Positions 47,354-53,926 of a stretch of DNA of 64,000 nucleotides are shown here, one piece after another. Both the position numbers and the translations under genes were made by a program. Each line of letters starts with the position of its first letter. Position 1 is the stretch's first letter. The notes under the pieces are model-generated. The model had not been told where the DNA came from. It saw nothing but the letters and a program-made list of their open reading frames with translations, and ran no database searches. The stretch comes from Vulcanimicrobiota bacterium (GTDB lineage Bacteria; Vulcanimicrobiota; Vulcanimicrobiia; Vulcanimicrobiales; Vulcanimicrobiaceae), in assembly GCA_963723515.1 (NCBI GenBank), contig CAVRQT010000003.1, forward strand, positions 128,001 to 192,000, in the 5' to 3' direction.

Positions 47354-47983
47354 ATGCAGAGCAAGGCGACAAACGGCCGCACGCGGATGCGCAAACACCT
47401 CTACAACGTCGGCGCGCTCTTCCGCGGATTTGCAACGGTCTTCAGCTTCATGTTCATGCGCAAGCCGACGATCGGCTATCCGAGCATCAAGAAGCAGCAT
47501 GCGCCCCGATTTCATGGGCTTCACGAACTGCGCCGTTACGCGGACGGCAAAGAGCGATGCATCGGTTGTGAGCTCTGCGCGATTGCCTGCCCCGCCAATG
47601 CGATCACCGTTATCGGCGCCGAGAATCGGCCTGACGATCGCCGTTCACCCGGCGAGCGGTATGCAGCGCGCTATGAGATCGATGAGTTGCGCTGCATCTT
47701 CTGCGGCATGTGCGAAGAGGCGTGTCCGACCGACGCGATCGTGCTCACGCCGCGCTTTGAGATGTCCGATTACCGGCGCGGTTCGTTCATTTACGCGAAA
47801 GACCGGTTGCTCGTACCGCCGCAAGCCGGCGTCGGAACGTCGCCCGACGAGCGTCCCGGCGGGATCCCGGCGGATCTCGGAGAGGTCGCCGAAATCAAAT
47901 CAACCGTCGATATCGAGCGCGGCTACGATGCAACCTATCGCGGTCAGATCCTCAAGACGCAGCGCCGGGGCTTAGCGGATTGA
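47354..47983 (+). CDS. nuoI: NADH-quinone oxidoreductase subunit I
   Basis: CIGCELCAIACP and CIFCGMCEEACP. Confidence 0.95.
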   Translation: MQSKATNGRTRMRKHLYNVGALFRGFATVFSFMFMRKPTIGYPSIKKQHAPRFHGLHELRRYADGKERCIGCELCAIACPANAITVIGAENRPDDRRSPGERYAARYEIDELRCIFCGMCEEACPTDAIVLTPRFEMSDYRRGSFIYAKDRLLVPPQAGVGTSPDERPGGIPADLGEVAEIKSTVDIERGYDATYRGQILKTQRRGLAD

Positions 47984-48588
47984 CGCTCTTTTGGATCCTC
48001 GGCATCTTGCTCGTCGCAAGTGCCGTCTTTGTGATCAGCCAGCGCAAGCCGGTATACAGCGTCGTTGGGCTGCTCGTACACTTTGCCGTGCTGGCTGTTT
48101 TCTATCTCACGCTGAATGCGGAATTTCTCGCGGTCATTCAAATCGTGATCTATTCCGGTGCGATTCTGATTCTGTTCGTCTTCGTGATCGCGCTGCTTTC
48201 GAGCGGCGTTTCGGCATTTTCCGTCGGGCCGAACCGCATGCCGAAAGCTGCCGTTCCGGCAGGCGTGCTCGCCTTCGTTGCACTCGCCTTCGTCGTCTAT
48301 GGGATCTTGCGCATGCCGCTCGTCGCCGCCGGCGCGCGTGCCGTGACAACCTCGATTCCGGGAGCCGTCGGCGCGCCGAATGTCTTCGGCAGCGTTGCAG
48401 ATTTCGGACGAGCGCTCTTCACGACGCATTTGCTGCCTTTTGAGATCACGGCTTTCATTCTGATGGTGGCCGTCATCGGCGTCGTCGCTCTCGCCGGTGA
48501 GCAAACGCCGTTCGTCCCATCGTTGCGGCGCGCCCGTGCGGTCGAACGTGAGATGCGCGAAGCGCTCTTGCGCGGCGGCGAGCAGTGA
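47980..48588 (+). CDS. nuoJ: NADH-quinone oxidoreductase subunit J
   Basis: AEFLAVIQIVIYSGAI, PFE. Confidence 0.93.
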   Translation: MTLFWILGILLVASAVFVISQRKPVYSVVGLLVHFAVLAVFYLTLNAEFLAVIQIVIYSGAILILFVFVIALLSSGVSAFSVGPNRMPKAAVPAGVLAFVALAFVVYGILRMPLVAAGARAVTTSIPGAVGAPNVFGSVADFGRALFTTHLLPFEITAFILMVAVIGVVALAGEQTPFVPSLRRARAVEREMREALLRGGEQ

Positions 48589-48905
48589 ACGAAGCGGCGC
48601 TGCCGGTCGCGATCGTCAACTACATCGCGCTTTCGGCGGTCATTCTGTTCATTGGCGCGGCAGGCGTCATGCTGCGACGCAACCCGCTGATCATGCTGAT
48701 GTCGATCGAACTGATGTGGAATGCCGCAAACCTGCTCTTCCTCGCCTTCGCGCGCGCATGGCTCAACAACGCCGGACACATCTTCGCGTTCATCGTCATT
48801 ACGGTCGCCGCGGCGGAGGCCGCGATCGGCTTGGCGATTGTGGTCGTCGTCTTTCGATCGTCGCGCACGGTTGACGTCGACGAAGTGACGAGCTTGAGGG
48901 GTTGA
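48585..48905 (+). CDS. nuoK: NADH-quinone oxidoreductase subunit K
   Basis: RRN..MSIELM, VAAAEAAIGLA. Confidence 0.95.
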   Translation: MNEAALPVAIVNYIALSAVILFIGAAGVMLRRNPLIMLMSIELMWNAANLLFLAFARAWLNNAGHIFAFIVITVAAAEAAIGLAIVVVVFRSSRTVDVDEVTSLRG

Positions 48906-49106
48906 TGCATCAGATACGCCCTGTCACGCTGAGCCTGTCGAAGCGCCACCGTTATCGCGGCATTAAAGTAGCGCCTTTAGACGTGATCCAGGATAGGCTA
49001 GCCAGATTTGCACGACCCTTCGATGCTTCGACACTTCGACATGCTCAGTGCAGGCTGCCGCTCAGCACAGGCGTTCTCAGGGTGACACACCGCTGATGCA
49101 TCAGAT
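48903..49106. mobile_element. Non-autonomous (MITE/REPIN-like) insertion: an inverted pair of hairpin repeats with nested copies, flanked by a 13-bp direct repeat
   Basis: TGATGCATCAGAT at 48903-48915 and 49094-49106. Inverted ends TGTCACGCTGAG (48922-48933) and CTCAGGGTGACA (49076-49087). Confidence 0.75.
48905..49096 (+). CDS. 63-aa repeat-derived ORF coupled (TGATG) to both nuoK and nuoL
   Basis: Its ATG overlaps the nuoK stop and its stop overlaps the nuoL ATG. Translation is inferred, not shown. Confidence 0.45.
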   Translation: MHQIRPVTLSLSKRHRYRGIKVAPLDVIQDRLARFARPFDASTLRHAQCRLPLSTGVLRVTHR

Positions 49107-51087
49107 TGGCGTTGCCGGAACCTATCCGCTGCTGTATTTGATTTGGCTCTTGCCGCTCGCCGGTGCGATTGTGTGCTGGGCGTTTGGCCCGCAGCTGCGC
49201 ACGCTGGCCGGTTCGCTCGGCAGTGCGGCAATCGGCGCTGCGTTTCTTGCGACGATTCTCTCCTGGGGGAGCGCGATGCAGCGCAGCGGCGGACTGCTCG
49301 GCGCACATCAGCATATCGGCTCCTGGTTCCGCGGCTTCGATTTCGGGCTGCTGCTCGATCCGCTCTCGCTCATTTGGGCGCTAATCATCACGGGCGTCGG
49401 GTTCGTCATTCACCTCTACTCGATCGGCTATATGAGCGGCGATCGTGCGTACGCGCGCTTCTTCGGTTACATGAATTTCTTCGTCTTCGCGATGCTGACG
49501 CTCGTGCTCGCGGACAACTTTGTGCTTTTGCTCGTCGGCTGGGGCCTCGTTGGTTTGGCTTCGTACTTCTTGATCGGATTCTGGTTCGAACGGCCGACGG
49601 CCGTCGCCGCGGCGCGCAAGGCGTTCGTCATCAATGTTGTCGGCGATGTCGCCATGCTCTTCGCAATCTTCATTATCTTTGCAAAGGTGGGCTCGATTTC
49701 GTATGCCGACGTCTTTGCAAATCCAACAGTGCTTGGATCGTCATTATTGCTCGTTTGCATCTGCCTCTTCATCGGCGCGGCGGCGAAATCGGCGCAAGTA
49801 CCGCTGCACACATGGTTGCCCGACGCGATGGAGGGTCCGACGCCGGTTTCCGCATTGATTCACGCGGCGACGATGGTCACCGCCGGCGTCTATCTCGTCG
49901 CCCGGTGCTGGCCGCTTTGGAATGCCTCACATGATGCGCAGACGATTGCCGGCACGATCGGCGCATTGACGGCGCTGATCGGGGCGGTTCTCGGAACGTC
50001 CCAGTGGGATATCAAGCGAATTTTGGCCTATTCGACGATGTCGCAGATCGGCTACATGATCATGGGCGTCGGCGTCGGTGCATATGAAGGCGGCGTCGCA
50101 CATTTCTTTACGCACGCATTTTTCAAGGCGCAGCTTTTCTTGGCGGCGGGGCTCGTCATTCACGCGCTTGCAAACGAGCAAGACGTGCGATTGATGGGCG
50201 GTTTACGCAAACGCATGCCGCTGGCGTTCTGGGCCATGGTGGTCGGCGTCTTGGCGATCTGCGGCGTTCCGGGACTCTCGGGCTTTTTCAGCAAGGACGC
50301 GGTCATCTTCGGAGCGCTCGAGCACGGCCATCCGTGGCTCTATGCGATCGGCATCGTTACCGCGGGCATCACGGCATACTACATGTTCCGGATGCTCTTT
50401 CTGACGTTTTTCGGCGAGTATCGGGGCGAGATGAGGCCGGACGAACTCGGCATTCCGTCCGAGGAAGCGCAAGCGATTACCGCCCTTCGAGAGCCTCAGG
50501 ACGCACATGAGCCGGCGCACGAAGAAGAACATGCGCCGGCGTGGGTGATGAACGCGCCGGTTGCGGTGCTCATCATCCCGTCAATCATTGCGGGCTGGCT
50601 GCTCGTCGGCGGCGAGAGCTCGCCGTGGCACCGGTTCTTCGCGGGGCAATTTCAAACCGTGACCGGCCCGACACCGGTCAGCGAGCTCGTGACGTCGCTG
50701 CTCGTGCTGCTTTTCGTTTTGGCCGGCGTCGCGGTCGCCTATCTGCGTTATGCTGCTGCGCCGGCACTGGCCAACGCGCCGGCGCGCTTGCAACGCGAAT
50801 CGCTTCGCATGCCGGCCGCACTCACGCAGCTGCTGTATTTTGATACCGCGATCGATATACTGTTCGTCAAACCGGCCATCGGTTTAGGGGTGATCTTCGG
50901 CCGTGCATTCGATCCGCACGTTATCGACGGCGCGGTGCGTGAGGCGGTAATTTCCGCCCGCTGGCTCGGGCATCTCTTTCGTAGCTTTCAAACGGGACTC
51001 GTTCGTGCGTACGCAGTGATCATGATCTTCGGCGCGGCATGCTTCATCGCGTATTATGCCTTTGCACGCGGGCTCGTGATGCGCTGA
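49096..51087 (+). CDS. nuoL: NADH-quinone oxidoreductase subunit L
   Basis: YSIGYM, KSAQVPLHTWLPDAMEGPTPVSALIHAATMVTAG, HAFFKA, GFFSKD. Confidence 0.96.
   Translation: MHQIGVAGTYPLLYLIWLLPLAGAIVCWAFGPQLRTLAGSLGSAAIGAAFLATILSWGSAMQRSGGLLGAHQHIGSWFRGFDFGLLLDPLSLIWALIITGVGFVIHLYSIGYMSGDRAYARFFGYMNFFVFAMLTLVLADNFVLLLVGWGLVGLASYFLIGFWFERPTAVAAARKAFVINVVGDVAMLFAIFIIFAKVGSISYADVFANPTVLGSSLLLVCICLFIGAAAKSAQVPLHTWLPDAMEGPTPVSALIHAATMVTAGVYLVARCWPLWNASHDAQTIAGTIGALTALIGAVLGTSQWDIKRILAYSTMSQIGYMIMGVGVGAYEGGVAHFFTHAFFKAQLFLAAGLVIHALANEQDVRLMGGLRKRMPLAFWAMVVGVLAICGVPGLSGFFSKDAVIFGALEHGHPWLYAIGIVTAGITAYYMFRMLFLTFFGEYRGEMRPDELGIPSEEAQAITALREPQDAHEPAHEEEHAPAWVMNAPVAVLIIPSIIAGWLLVGGESSPWHRFFAGQFQTVTGPTPVSELVTSLLVLLFVLAGVAVAYLRYAAAPALANAPARLQRESLRMPAALTQLLYFDTAIDILFVKPAIGLGVIFGRAFDPHVIDGAVREAVISARWLGHLFRSFQTGLVRAYAVIMIFGAACFIAYYAFARGLVMR
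50483..50501 (+). repeat. Divergent hairpin repeat copy in frame within the NuoL loop
   Basis: CCCTTCGAGAGCCTCAGGA (ALREPQD) keeps TTCGA-N4-CTCAG and the stem. Confidence 0.65.
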
Positions 51088-52496
51088 TGGTTATCTCGCT
51101 CGTCCTTCTGCCGCTCGTCGCCGGCTTTGCGCTGTTCTTGCTGCCGCGCGAAGACCGCAGAGTCAGCAAAGCGACCGGCTGCATCATTGCAGCGGCGACG
51201 TTCGTCTTGGCGCTGGCGAGCAGCGATCGAACGCAGACCGCGCGCTGGCTCTCGCGTCCATTTACGGCGGCCTTCCATTTTTCGAACGACGGCATCGGGC
51301 ACTGGATCGTGTTGTTGCTCGCCTTGGCGACGTTTTGCGCGATTCTGGCGACGACCGTGCCGCGAATGCGCAGCTTTATCGCGCTGCTGCTGCTGCTCGA
51401 GGGCACGATGATGGGCGTCTTTTTGGCGCGCGATCTGCTGCTCTTTGCGCTCTTCTGGGATGCAATGCTGATGCCGGTCTTCCTGGCACTGATTGGCTGG
51501 GGAGAACATCCCGCGACGGCGTGGCGCTATTTGATCTACAACTTTGCCGGCGGCCTGACGCTGCTCTTGGCGACCGCTGCTTACGGCGTGATCGCCGGCT
51601 CGACGGACGTCATCGGCAAGACGAACGTGGCGCACATCGGCTACGTGTGGGCGGCGTGGATCCTCGCTGGATTCGCATTTGCATTCTTGGTAAAGACGCC
51701 GGTGTGGCCGTTTCACACGTGGATGCCCGCAACGTACGCCGACACGCCGGCGCCGATGATCGCCGTCGTGAGTGGCGTGCAGTCGAAAGCCGGACTGTAC
51801 GGCTTCATCGTCGTGGGGCTTGCGCTGCTGCCTGAATCGATGCGCGCGGCCACGATTGCGATGTTTTGGCTGGGGTTGATCTCACTGCTGTACGGCGCGT
51901 TGATCGCGCTCGTGCAAACCGACGGCAAACGCATCGTCGCCTATTCGTCGCTATCGCATCTTGGCTTGATCTTGCTGGCGATCTTCAGTTTCAATGCCCT
52001 TGCCTTGCGCGGTGCATTGATCTACATCATCGCGCACGGCCTCTTCAGCGCTGCCCTCTTCCTGATTCTCGGCTATGTTGAGGAACGTGAGGAGACGCGC
52101 TCGCTCCTGCGGCTCGGCGGACTGGGCCGGCGCAATCCGCGTTTGGCGGGCGCGTTCGTGATCGCCGCGCTTGCGGCGCTCGGTTTGCCGGGACTCGCCG
52201 GATTCGCGGGCGAGCTCGTCATTTTGACCGGCCTCTTTGCAGCGGGCAATTTCTGGGTCGCCCTGATCGCGTTGATTCCGATCATCATCGCCTCGGCGTA
52301 CATGCTGCGGCTCTTCCAAGAGATGATGAATGGGCCCGAGGTGGCCGACGTGCCGGTGCGCGCAGACCTGAGTTGGATTGAAGGTCTTGCTGTTGCGCCG
52401 CTGCTCTTAGCGATCGTTTTAATCGGCGTTGATCCGCACGCACTGACGACATTCGATACGGCGCCGTACGCGGCGAGCGTGGCGGTTCAGCAATGA
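51087..52496 (+). CDS. nuoM: NADH-quinone oxidoreductase subunit M
   Basis: KTPVWPFHTWMP, KRIVAYSSLSH, GLPGLAGFAGE. Confidence 0.93.
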   Translation: MVISLVLLPLVAGFALFLLPREDRRVSKATGCIIAAATFVLALASSDRTQTARWLSRPFTAAFHFSNDGIGHWIVLLLALATFCAILATTVPRMRSFIALLLLLEGTMMGVFLARDLLLFALFWDAMLMPVFLALIGWGEHPATAWRYLIYNFAGGLTLLLATAAYGVIAGSTDVIGKTNVAHIGYVWAAWILAGFAFAFLVKTPVWPFHTWMPATYADTPAPMIAVVSGVQSKAGLYGFIVVGLALLPESMRAATIAMFWLGLISLLYGALIALVQTDGKRIVAYSSLSHLGLILLAIFSFNALALRGALIYIIAHGLFSAALFLILGYVEEREETRSLLRLGGLGRRNPRLAGAFVIAALAALGLPGLAGFAGELVILTGLFAAGNFWVALIALIPIIIASAYMLRLFQEMMNGPEVADVPVRADLSWIEGLAVAPLLLAIVLIGVDPHALTTFDTAPYAASVAVQQ

Positions 52497-53926
52497 TTTC
52501 GAACCCGTTTACCGCCCTCGATTGGGCGGCAATTTGGCCGTTGCTCTTCGTTGCGGCAACAGCGCTGGTCGTGCTCTTTTCCGACTTGGTCGTCCCGGTC
52601 ACGATCAAACGGCCCGTCGCGATTGCGATCAGTCTGATCGGGCTTCTCGTTGCGGCATATATCTGCGCGCGAAGCTACGGCCAAAGTTACAGCGCGTTCG
52701 GCGGCGGATTCATCGTCGGCGGCTTCGCGGTCGTCTTTCAAGAGGTGATCTTGCTGGCGGCGATCTTCTCGGTCGCGTTGTTTGCGGCGGTCGGCGAAAG
52801 TGAATATTTGGCGGGCTCACTGGCGCTGATGCTTTGGAGCGCGAGCGGCGCCATGTTGATGGCGGGCGCCGGCAACTTGATGACGATCTTTCTCGGCCTC
52901 GAGCTGCTCTCGCTCGCCCTCTATTGTCTCTGCGGCATGTCGAAGCGCCCGTCGGCGCGCGAGTCCGCGCTGAAATATTTGATTCTTTCGTCGACGGCGA
53001 CCGGCGTGATGCTCTACGGAATGGCCCTCTTCTTCGGAGGCAGCGGCAGCATCAATCTCTCCGCGCTCACATCGGCGCAGGTTGAAAGCAGTCCGCTTTT
53101 CATCATCGGCAGCGGTCTCTTTCTGATTGGATTAGCGTTTAAGTTGAGTCTCGTCCCGTTTCACGTATGGACGCCCGATGTCTACGAAGGCGCACCGCTT
53201 CCGGTTACGGCGTTCATGAGTGTTGCGACGAAAGCCGGGGCGTTAGCCGTCTTTGCGCGATTCGCGTACGCGGCAGTCGGAACGCCGCAGGCGCATGCCG
53301 TGCTCTATCCGATGTGGATCATCGCCGGCATCTCGATGCTCGTCGGCAATCTCGCGGCGCTCGCGCAAACCGACCTTAAGCGACTGCTGGCATACTCCGG
53401 CATCGCGCAAGTCGGCTACATCGTCGCGGCATTCGCGGGGTCGACGCAGCTCGGCTTGCGCTATGCAATTTTCTACCTTGTCGCGTATCTGTTCATGAAT
53501 TTGGGAGCGTTTGCGGTCATCGCGTTGCTCTCGAGCGAGAAAGAAGAAGGCGCGCGGATCGCCGCTTACCATGGCCTCGCCCATCGCCGCCCGCTCCTGG
53601 CCGCTGCGATGACGTTTTTCTTGCTCGCTTTAGCCGGCTTCCCGCCGACGGCCGGCTTCATCGGAAAAATATTGATTCTCTCGAGTCTGATCAGCGCGCG
53701 GTTCGCGTGGCTCGCCGGCGTACTGATCTTAGGCACTGCGATTTCGCTCTACGTGTATTTCAAAATCGTGCGTTTGATGTACGAACGGCAAGAGCCCAAA
53801 CTCGTCGTCGGCGTGAATTCGCGAGCGCCGCTGGCGTGGCTCAGCGTCGCGATCTGCGCAGTCGCGACGCTCGGCTTGACGCTCTATCCGCTCACGCCGA
53901 GTAACGTGCTCCCGCTGGTGAAGTAG
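52493..53926 (+). CDS. nuoN: NADH-quinone oxidoreductase subunit N
   Basis: ESALKY, FKLSLVPFHVWTPDVYEGAP, KRLLAYSGIA, GFPPTAGFIGK. Confidence 0.95.
   Translation: MISNPFTALDWAAIWPLLFVAATALVVLFSDLVVPVTIKRPVAIAISLIGLLVAAYICARSYGQSYSAFGGGFIVGGFAVVFQEVILLAAIFSVALFAAVGESEYLAGSLALMLWSASGAMLMAGAGNLMTIFLGLELLSLALYCLCGMSKRPSARESALKYLILSSTATGVMLYGMALFFGGSGSINLSALTSAQVESSPLFIIGSGLFLIGLAFKLSLVPFHVWTPDVYEGAPLPVTAFMSVATKAGALAVFARFAYAAVGTPQAHAVLYPMWIIAGISMLVGNLAALAQTDLKRLLAYSGIAQVGYIVAAFAGSTQLGLRYAIFYLVAYLFMNLGAFAVIALLSSEKEEGARIAAYHGLAHRRPLLAAAMTFFLLALAGFPPTAGFIGKILILSSLISARFAWLAGVLILGTAISLYVYFKIVRLMYERQEPKLVVGVNSRAPLAWLSVAICAVATLGLTLYPLTPSNVLPLVK

Follow-up and report, generated by a model that had tools for sequence, protein, structure and literature searches.

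An insertion of inverted hairpin repeats between nuoK and nuoL in a Vulcanimicrobiota genome, probably bridged by a relay open reading frame

We analyzed a 64-kb window (contig stretch C3:128001-192000) of a Vulcanimicrobiota genome, here called G000, in which the complex I genes nuoK and nuoL are separated by 191 bp of additional DNA. The addition comprises 178 bp built largely from a dispersed hairpin repeat and a second copy of a 13-bp sequence in which a stop codon overlaps a start codon, and a 63-codon open reading frame (ORF), the relay ORF, runs through it from the stop of nuoK to the start of nuoL. We consider it probable that a mobile element inserted at this junction with duplication of 13 bp of its target, and that the relay ORF bridges it and couples nuoK to nuoL. 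This account builds on the anatomy of the insert, its membership of a repeat family, its derived state, and an excess of bridging ORFs across unrelated insertions in relatives. G000 comprises 2.11 Mb in four contigs with ~60% G + C and is an 88% complete, metagenome-style assembly; other G numbers denote genomes of the same family, and L numbers denote loci.

The ORFs at 47354-53926 were named NuoI, J, K, L, M and N by NCBIfam. Nearly every stop codon in this operon overlaps the next start codon, and DNA inserted at one of these joints would be expected to interrupt the series. Every nuo junction readable in G000 is an overlap, with a spacing of -4 at C/D, D/E, I/J, J/K and M/N and of -1 at L/M, and the insertion has put two -1 overlaps (K/relay and relay/L) in place of one. 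The relevant features, in window coordinates, are as follows; the fillers were delimited by alignment with a sibling doublet described below.

48585 to 48905, plus strand: nuoK, GTG start, 106 codons plus TGA at 48903-48905 (NCBIfam NF004320, 100.3 bits against a cut-off of 57)
48896 to 48901, plus strand: Shine-Dalgarno-like site GAGGGG, inside the 3' end of nuoK and preceding the ATG of the relay ORF
48903 to 48915, plus strand: left 13-bp direct repeat TGATGCATCAGAT, containing the nuoK stop TGA and the relay ORF ATG
48905 to 49096, plus strand: relay ORF, ATG plus 62 codons plus TGA at 49094-49096 (alternative start TTG at 48902)
48916 to 48920, plus strand: filler ACGCC, 5 nt between the duplication and the family-homologous part
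48921 to 48960, plus strand: left hairpin unit (type A), a plain copy with its core CTGAGCCTGTCGAAG at 48929-48943
48961 to 49016, plus strand: central 56 nt, single-copy in G000 and not in the sibling doublet
49017 to 49089, minus strand: right unit (type B), inverted and three-fold nested, with its core at 49034-49048 on the minus strand
49090 to 49093, plus strand: filler CCGC, 4 nt
49094 to 49106, plus strand: right 13-bp direct repeat, containing the relay ORF stop TGA and the nuoL ATG
49096 to 51087, plus strand: nuoL, ATG start, 663 codons (NCBIfam NuoL, 665 bits against a cut-off of 556)

The GTG start of nuoK overlaps the nuoJ stop (GTGA), and the nuoL stop overlaps the nuoM ATG (TGATG). 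The N-terminus of nuoL, MHQIGVAGTYP, is alignable with the NuoL N-termini of relatives.

The 13-mer occurs exactly twice in the window, and none of 100 shuffles contained two or more matches. Its first 10 bp, TGATGCATCA, are a perfect palindrome, so the two copies also form an 11-nt inverted repeat. The relay ORF shares one nucleotide with the nuoK stop at its beginning and one, the A of the nuoL ATG, at its end; its peptide begins MHQIRPVTLSLSK. It is out of frame with nuoK, is cut off from nuoL by a stop codon, and is the sole stop-free frame of the six across the 178-bp insert. Excision of 191 bp yields GGG GTT TGATG CAT CAG ATT GGC, a normal -1 overlap. These results bear out four claims of the original prediction, which had been made from the letters alone: a 13-bp repeat at 48903 and 49094 with a stop/start overlap in each copy, a left repeat with an inverted, nested right partner (recovered by arm search as 15 nt at 93% and 12 nt at 92% identity), a frame open from the ATG at 48905 to a stop on the nuoL ATG (63 codons), and restoration of a normal nuoK-TGATG-nuoL junction by a 191-bp deletion.

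The ribosome sites suggest how such an arrangement could work. The GAGGGG site forms a duplex of -7.2 kcal/mol with the 16S rRNA 3' end, which is canonical in G000, and the best site upstream of the nuoL ATG reaches -3.9 kcal/mol, 11 nt upstream. In the proposed sequence of events, a 178-bp non-coding mobile element landed in the nuoK-TGATG-nuoL overlap of an ancestor, with 13 bp of the target being duplicated, perhaps after staggered cleavage by a transposase. Because the duplication covers the stop and start codons, nuoK and nuoL both stay intact. The left copy would retain the nuoK TGA, and the old nuoL ribosome site (GAGGGG, the ATG and the first three codons) would now head the 63-codon frame; the right copy would provide the TGA that terminates the relay frame on the nuoL ATG. 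Ribosomes ending nuoK, or starting at the old site, would cross the element, melt its structure and terminate on the nuoL start, and nuoL, stripped of its own good Shine-Dalgarno site, would be expressed by termination-reinitiation, by RNA unfolding, or by both, and so would depend on translation of the relay ORF. We infer in addition that continuous translation would shield the 190-nt gap from Rho-dependent polarity. The relay peptide itself is probably a by-product. According to those parts of a review of translational coupling that concern its mechanism (PMC12548453), -1 (TGATG) and -4 (NTGA) spacings are enriched coupling motifs, coupling declines with distance and depends on RNA structure and the Shine-Dalgarno site, and models of coupling by reinitiation and by RNA unfolding exist; these match the delivery of ribosomes and the melting of structure proposed here. 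The review covers real gene pairs, whereas here a non-genic ORF made by an insertion would give two short-range couplings for one.

We read 135 nuoK/nuoL junctions, 88 in a first set and 47 in a hold-out set, with nuoL starts assigned by alignment (one compact junction is from the unpublished genome G020). Spacings of -4 (NTGA) were found at 34 of the 135 and of -1 (TGATG or TAATG) at nine; two junctions have a longer overlap and 72 a gap of 0-34 nt, and the gap is thus below 35 nt in 117. Gaps of at least 35 nt were found at 18, and since that of G012 is an artefact of a nuoK frameshift, 17 true insertions remain, 12 of them in the first set (G000, G005, G006, G013, G021, G044, G061, G088, G090, G091, G096 and G158). 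In the same-genus genome G001, the two genes overlap by GTGA where this sequence has diverged, and the G004 junction reads GGA-TGATG-CATCACC, TGATGCATCA being followed there by CCT. Because G001 and most relatives have compact overlapping junctions, the G000 insert is a derived insertion. In place of the empty site that the original prediction expected, relatives showed a compact overlap; a site with an exact single TGATGCATCAGAT was present in none of the genomes searched.

The 17 inserts stem from several unrelated repeat families and few share sequence. That of G005 (L044, 1850-1990) is a different element of ~140 nt with more than 40 near-full genomic copies at 86-93% identity. That of G158 (L253, about 328-536) is a 190-nt MITE (miniature inverted-repeat transposable element) with 45% G + C and terminal inverted repeats of ~30 nt. 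In genus g5, the inserts of G005 and G096 share only their right 197 nt, yet one ORF spans each (156 and 203 codons).

A junction was scored as bridged where one ORF starts within -8 to +12 nt of the nuoK stop and ends within -12 to +9 nt of the nuoL start, and the null expectation was taken from dinucleotide shuffles of the insert interiors. A single bridging ORF was found in 11 of the 17 insertions, distributed as follows.

First set, all 12 insertions: 7 bridged, 1.46 expected, P = 6.5e-6
First set, one insertion per genus (10): 5 bridged, 1.27 expected, P = 5e-4
First set, one per genus without G000 (9): 4 bridged, 1.14 expected, P = 0.003
Hold-out set, all 5 insertions: 4 bridged, 0.83 expected, P = 2.7e-4
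Hold-out set, 3 insertions in genera without an earlier case: 3 bridged, 0.79 expected, P = 0.006

The hold-out junctions were added because the first-set windows had been chosen after examples were seen; for these 47 junctions and their five insertions, the criteria were fixed beforehand and the code was unchanged. When chains of abutting ORFs were allowed, 10 of the 12 first-set insertions were bridged against 3.1 expected (with the G090 nuoL start at 572), or nine of 12 with automatic nuoL starts, and a chain was present in only three of the 12 when the insert interiors were reverse-complemented. Since bridging ORFs at unrelated inserts in other genera far exceed the shuffle expectation, the relay reading is strengthened, and the bridging ORFs have probably been selected rather than arisen by chance, to judge from this comparison of sequences. 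Insertions at nuoK/nuoL most likely persist when ribosomes can still pass from nuoK to nuoL.

Several points weigh against this account. At the G000 locus the open frame alone is not significant, because 12-16% of shuffles yield it: the frame stayed open in 788 of 5000 dinucleotide shuffles of the insert, and a bridging ORF under the junction windows given above arose in 12.5%. The first-set windows were picked after three examples had been seen, and the hold-out set alone is free of this bias. Related genomes are not independent, and inserts may share descent (G005/G096, G061/G144, perhaps others); dinucleotide shuffles also miss any intrinsically stop-poor frame of such elements. Among the insertions themselves, G061 and G144, which belong to one genus, lack any bridging ORF, a bridge takes a chain of three ORFs in G006 and of two in G088, G021 fails with its automatic start, and G090 is bridged only after a shift of its nuoL start from 560 to 572 that was made post hoc. 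Several bridged relatives have a good Shine-Dalgarno site before nuoL (AGGAGA in G005, GGAG in G006), so the relay is not strictly needed in those relatives. The public record of the G000 insert is also thin: a single 151-nt contig from a soil run (X1) covers 48795-48929 with one mismatch, extending 14 nt past the first 13-mer where our rule was 31 letters on each side, and exact scans of metagenome contigs with 30 nt of the centre and with 25 nt of the left junction gave no match for either.

These points bear on the possibility that the arrangement is a neutral accident, in which both genes were kept by chance, nuoL relies for its translation on a weak site of its own or on unfolding of the RNA by ribosomes that end nuoK, and the open frame has no role. 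The shuffle frequency at this locus fits such an accident, as does the sequence of the family units, which are stop-free in two of three frames, and G061 and G144 tolerate unbridged inserts of 237-493 nt at the same junction. A chance origin does not, however, explain the excess of bridging over 17 independent or semi-independent insertions, including four of five in the hold-out set against 0.83 expected, nor the three of 12 in the reverse-complement control; and in G000, nuoL no longer has its Shine-Dalgarno site, with pairing predicted for its ATG. We therefore regard a neutral accident as unlikely, though it deserves serious consideration.

A misassembly or a chimeric read could in principle have misplaced the 191 bp. 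No record spans the full insert, the outside contig covers only 14 nt of it, the scans of metagenome contigs gave no exact match, and the genome is an incomplete metagenome-style assembly in four contigs; three DNA runs of one soil study gave mostly the nuoK of other organisms (less than 95% alike) and nothing that spans the insert. A misassembly would nevertheless be unlikely to create an exact 13-bp duplication and leave the two genes undamaged and in register. Past nuoK and the first 13-mer, the X1 contig continues into the insert and not into nuoL, and comparable insertions lie at nuoK/nuoL in 16 other genomes from other assemblies. An artefact is hardly credible on this evidence.

The 178 bp between the two 13-mer copies consist of two inverted hairpin units around a unique 56-nt centre. 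The inverted arms pair 48929-48943 with 49034-49048 (15 nt, 93%) and 48922-48933 with 49076-49087 (12 nt, 92%), the terminal 12-nt arms TGTCACGCTGAG and CTCAGGGTGACA sitting 6-7 nt inside the insert ends. In the left unit the core CTGAGCCTGTCGAAG is flanked by GTCACG and CGCC and followed by a small second hairpin; in the nested right arm, CTTCGA and GCTCAG each occur three times. The original prediction proposed a search of the genome with the spacer between the repeats. BLAST of the insert against G000 gave 98 matches, all to its two ends, and the centre (query positions about 45-100) had no other match in the genome. The central 56 nt were likewise not found in G001, G004, G006 or G013, nor in 60 other family genomes, where the lone match had an E value of 0.006 over 26 nt.

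The two ends belong to a dispersed family. Its core CTGAGCNTGTCGAAG has 109 exact copies in G000, where the repeat forms 110 islands totalling 11.4 kb. The core is the loop of a hairpin, and the closing stem varies in sequence among copies yet is still paired: over 108 distinct G000 copies, the first and second closing pairs are paired in 93% and 95%, figures that drop to 31% and 5% if the partner is shifted one position, and C-G, G-C and A-T are all common among these pairs. A sibling doublet at G000:C2:476351-476470 has the same left and right units without the central 56 nt. Copies of the right unit with 85-87% identity lie at G000:C3:291431 and C2:476392, and a two-layer right unit occurs in the same-genus genome at G001:C26 (locus L190, about 1485-1535).

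The 63-codon ORF might instead encode a small protein with a function, for example a novel accessory subunit, with the repeat-like sequence secondary. The ORF has a good ribosome site and lies within an operon of membrane subunits. Its peptide had no match in Pfam or NCBIfam, though, and it is not present in the same-genus G001; two thirds of it is repeat-family sequence that occurs in ~100 copies in non-homologous places. The bridging peptides of relatives are unrelated to it and to one another in sequence and length (14-203 aa), are rich in Arg, Pro and Ala, have no match to a Pfam or NCBIfam family, and look like translated non-coding DNA. A dedicated protein is accordingly a very improbable explanation.

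The original prediction described the insert as a REPIN/MITE-like doublet, a REPIN being a mobile pair of repetitive extragenic palindromic (REP) sequences. The inverted doublet of a dispersed family stands; the transposase expected with it was not found. Like a REPIN, the insert has two REP-type hairpins in inverted orientation with a short spacer and many dispersed relatives in the genome. A search for REP-associated tyrosine transposases (RAYT/Y1, PF01797) gave no match in G000, whose 88% completeness cannot prove absence, and the control genomes matched; five relatives (G001, G005, G006, G007 and G010) also had none, among them G006, where the repeat unit has at least 147 matches. Like a MITE, the insert is short (178 bp), has terminal inverted repeats and has no protein-family match. 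No parent insertion sequence was identified, the transposase search being confined to the Y1 family. Rfam covariance models gave best E values of 0.6-4.7 for the insert, far below gathering scores, and no match for the junctions of nine relatives. We do not class it as a REPIN, because no RAYT was found and flanking duplications are atypical of the family; the Rickettsia palindromic element type was rejected, as the insert does not lie in-frame within a host gene. From its sequence the insert appears REPIN/MITE-like in shape and may have been moved by machinery other than a RAYT of the kind searched for.

For the 13-bp repeat, a target-site duplication is the best interpretation. A long target duplication, as originally proposed, holds for this copy, where it keeps the nuoK stop and the nuoL start, but is not a trait of the family: flanking direct repeats of at least 11 nt occur at four of the 110 G000 islands, and the other three lie within tandem arrays. 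The G006 nuoK/nuoL array (1.1 kb, same core) is flanked by two copies of the 8-bp TGACTGCG, and both this repeat and the 13-bp repeat of G000 begin at the T of the nuoK TGA. The flanks of the sibling doublet have 79-84% identity in G001:C27 around a different gap of 479 bp; filled and empty sites could not be read for duplications in this comparison because the intergenic DNA is only ~80% identical.

Predicted folding bears on a further possibility, in which the hairpins act on the RNA, stabilising nuoA-K or forming a processing site that sets the levels of nuoA-K against nuoL-N, with translation incidental. REP elements stabilise upstream mRNA, a role that the title of Stern et al. (1988) also names. 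The 204-nt segment is predicted to fold at -76.4 kcal/mol (z -2.9), and only one of 200 shuffles folds equally well; the 13-mers (48903-48913 with 49093-49103) are predicted to pair in both the minimum free energy and centroid structures, in an 11-bp helix that would bury the nuoL ATG. An RNA-level role is further favored by the 34 of 110 family islands that lie between convergent genes (by crude gene calls based on G + C at third codon positions), as for REP-type stabilisers, and by the distribution of insertions (10 of 88 at K/L, none of 56 at L/M and none of 27 at J/K). Active translation across the hairpins would, by contrast, keep them melted; the insert has no terminator-like site, and unrelated inserts with different structures occupy the same junction in relatives. 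Such a role is compatible with bridging by the relay ORF and does not exclude it, and we consider it quite improbable as the explanation in its own right.

The closest precedent is the mycobacterial interspersed repetitive unit (MIRU), for which Supply et al. (1997) reportedly proposed translational coupling. MIRUs likewise place a short repeat between genes of one operon, as the G000 insert lies between nuoK and nuoL, with an ORF in the direction of the operon that overlaps the stop and start of its neighbours, as the relay ORF does with TGATG at both ends. Sections of a review that treat these units (PMC3184786) describe them as lying between genes of polycistronic operons, co-transcribed, with ORF ends that overlap the adjacent genes, and as having known empty and filled sites and short direct repeats; a passage elsewhere states that they may control translation of downstream genes (PMC7884335). 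The likeness would be one of mechanism only. MIRUs are 40-100-bp units in tandem arrays of Mycobacterium with tetranucleotide direct repeats, whereas the G000 insert, 178 bp long, is an inverted doublet of hairpins from an unrelated repeat family and has a 13-bp duplication, and bridging here involves several unrelated insert families at one junction in many genera.

Single-strand transposition by Y1 enzymes is not expected to make a target duplication, and the G000 copy has one of 13 bp. Classical REPs also have conserved stems, while the G000 family has a conserved loop and variable stems. REPINs (Bertels and Rainey 2011; PMC3337134) resemble this family in numbering ~100 per genome and in occurring singly, as doublets and in clusters, and differ in being mobilised by a RAYT, no Y1_Tnp/RAYT having been found in G000 or the five relatives searched. 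Bacterial MITEs such as Correia, Chunjie and Nezha are small and non-coding, with terminal inverted repeats, target duplications and long hairpins; most copies of the G000 family differ in having no flanking duplication (four of 110 islands have one). Parts of two sources place some MITEs in operons and give Chunjie 9-bp direct repeats and one copy in a phosphate-uptake operon (PMC3184786, PMC10969869). Rickettsia palindromic elements, in an excerpt of the second of these (PMC10969869), are tolerated in essential genes, as they preserve the reading frame and are themselves translated. They lie within genes and add residues to the host protein, whereas the G000 element lies between genes and would be read as a separate coupled cistron.

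In the main article text searched, we found no paper joining miniature inverted-repeat elements with translational coupling in operons. What is new here is the different repeat type, the 13-bp duplication across a stop and a start, and the statistics over unrelated inserts at one junction. A target duplication over both codons, together with an open frame, would turn one coupling into two. With 17 insertions at one joint, most of them bridged, selection for continuous translation becomes testable, be it for reinitiation, unfolding or protection from Rho. The finding also gives annotators reason to expect short, non-conserved ORFs of the bridging kind inside operons, and would extend an idea mostly tied to mycobacterial MIRUs to uncultured soil bacteria and other repeat types. 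It is conceivable, although we hold this wider claim only tentatively, that translation through the insert is a general rule by which tightly coupled operons absorb mobile DNA. Of the unrelated small elements that have repeatedly entered the nuoK/nuoL joint in this bacterial family, the survivors would then be inserts translated as one new coupled mini-cistron or as several in a row, leaving ribosome traffic to nuoL-N uninterrupted, and the G000 hairpin repeat, whose 15-nt loop is conserved across many phyla, would be moved by non-RAYT machinery that can leave 8-13-bp duplications.

The nuoK/nuoL junction behaves as an insertion hot spot. Extrapolated gaps of at least 60 nt occur at 10 of 88 K/L junctions, compared with none of 27 J/K, none of 56 L/M and four of 28 I/J junctions. 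The palindrome TGATGCATCA lies upstream of nuoL in five of the 88 genomes (L031, L033, L036, L217 and L253), four of which have an insertion just upstream of it; either TGATGCATCA attracts insertions, or its TGA is retained for ending a bridging ORF on the nuoL ATG. The 140-nt element of the G005 type has about 20 copies in G096 and forms a hairpin around TTTCGCATCCATGCGAAA, and related pieces, in either orientation, are present at K/L in G061, G090 and G044. The right flank of the G158 MITE repeats the final 15 nt of nuoK in inverse orientation, and the hairpin therefore reaches into the end of the gene; G021, in the same genus, has a shorter hairpin of that kind, and the same-genus G105 is compact. 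In G012 (L048) there seems to be a frameshift close to the 3' end of nuoK, and in G100 (L260) the nuoK frame continues without a stop into nuoL; each may be genuine or stem from faulty assembly.

Nesting of the repeat units is frequent, one copy being set inside another, where it separates the CTGAGC half from the TCGAAG half, in as many as three layers; the nested unit of G001 is without the innermost 24 nt of the nuo copy, and like nesting occurs in other phyla (e.g., L083, L122, L124 and L130). No published description of the core or its complement was found in the main article text searched. The 15-nt core CTGAGCTTGTCGAAG is exact in at least 127 public-genome stretches (loci L061-L187), with hosts in Bacteroidota, Chloroflexota, Cyanobacteria, Alpha-, Beta- and Gammaproteobacteria, Actinomycetota, Nitrospirota, Planctomycetota, Acidobacteriota, NC10 and several candidate-phyla-radiation lineages. 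The stems around it vary by host and stay complementary, the first two pairs being paired at 94% and 96% of 149 distinct sites. A loop shared across phyla with free stems suggests a shared partner, either a protein or an RNA, or else a mobile element of promiscuous habit.

Further exact cores lie in the window at about 6721 (minus strand), 14702 (plus strand) and 36210 (minus strand), corresponding to G000:C3:134721, 142702 and 164210. Elsewhere on the contig, a tandem array with family units at G000:C3:405140-405400 repeats a 127-bp unit twice, and another at G000:C3:373390-374310 has regularly spaced family units. On G006:C1, units of the left-arm type are almost all on the minus strand at ~1.41-2.18 Mb and mostly on the plus strand at ~0.64-1.39 Mb, a pattern that hints at an orientation bias tied to the direction of replication.

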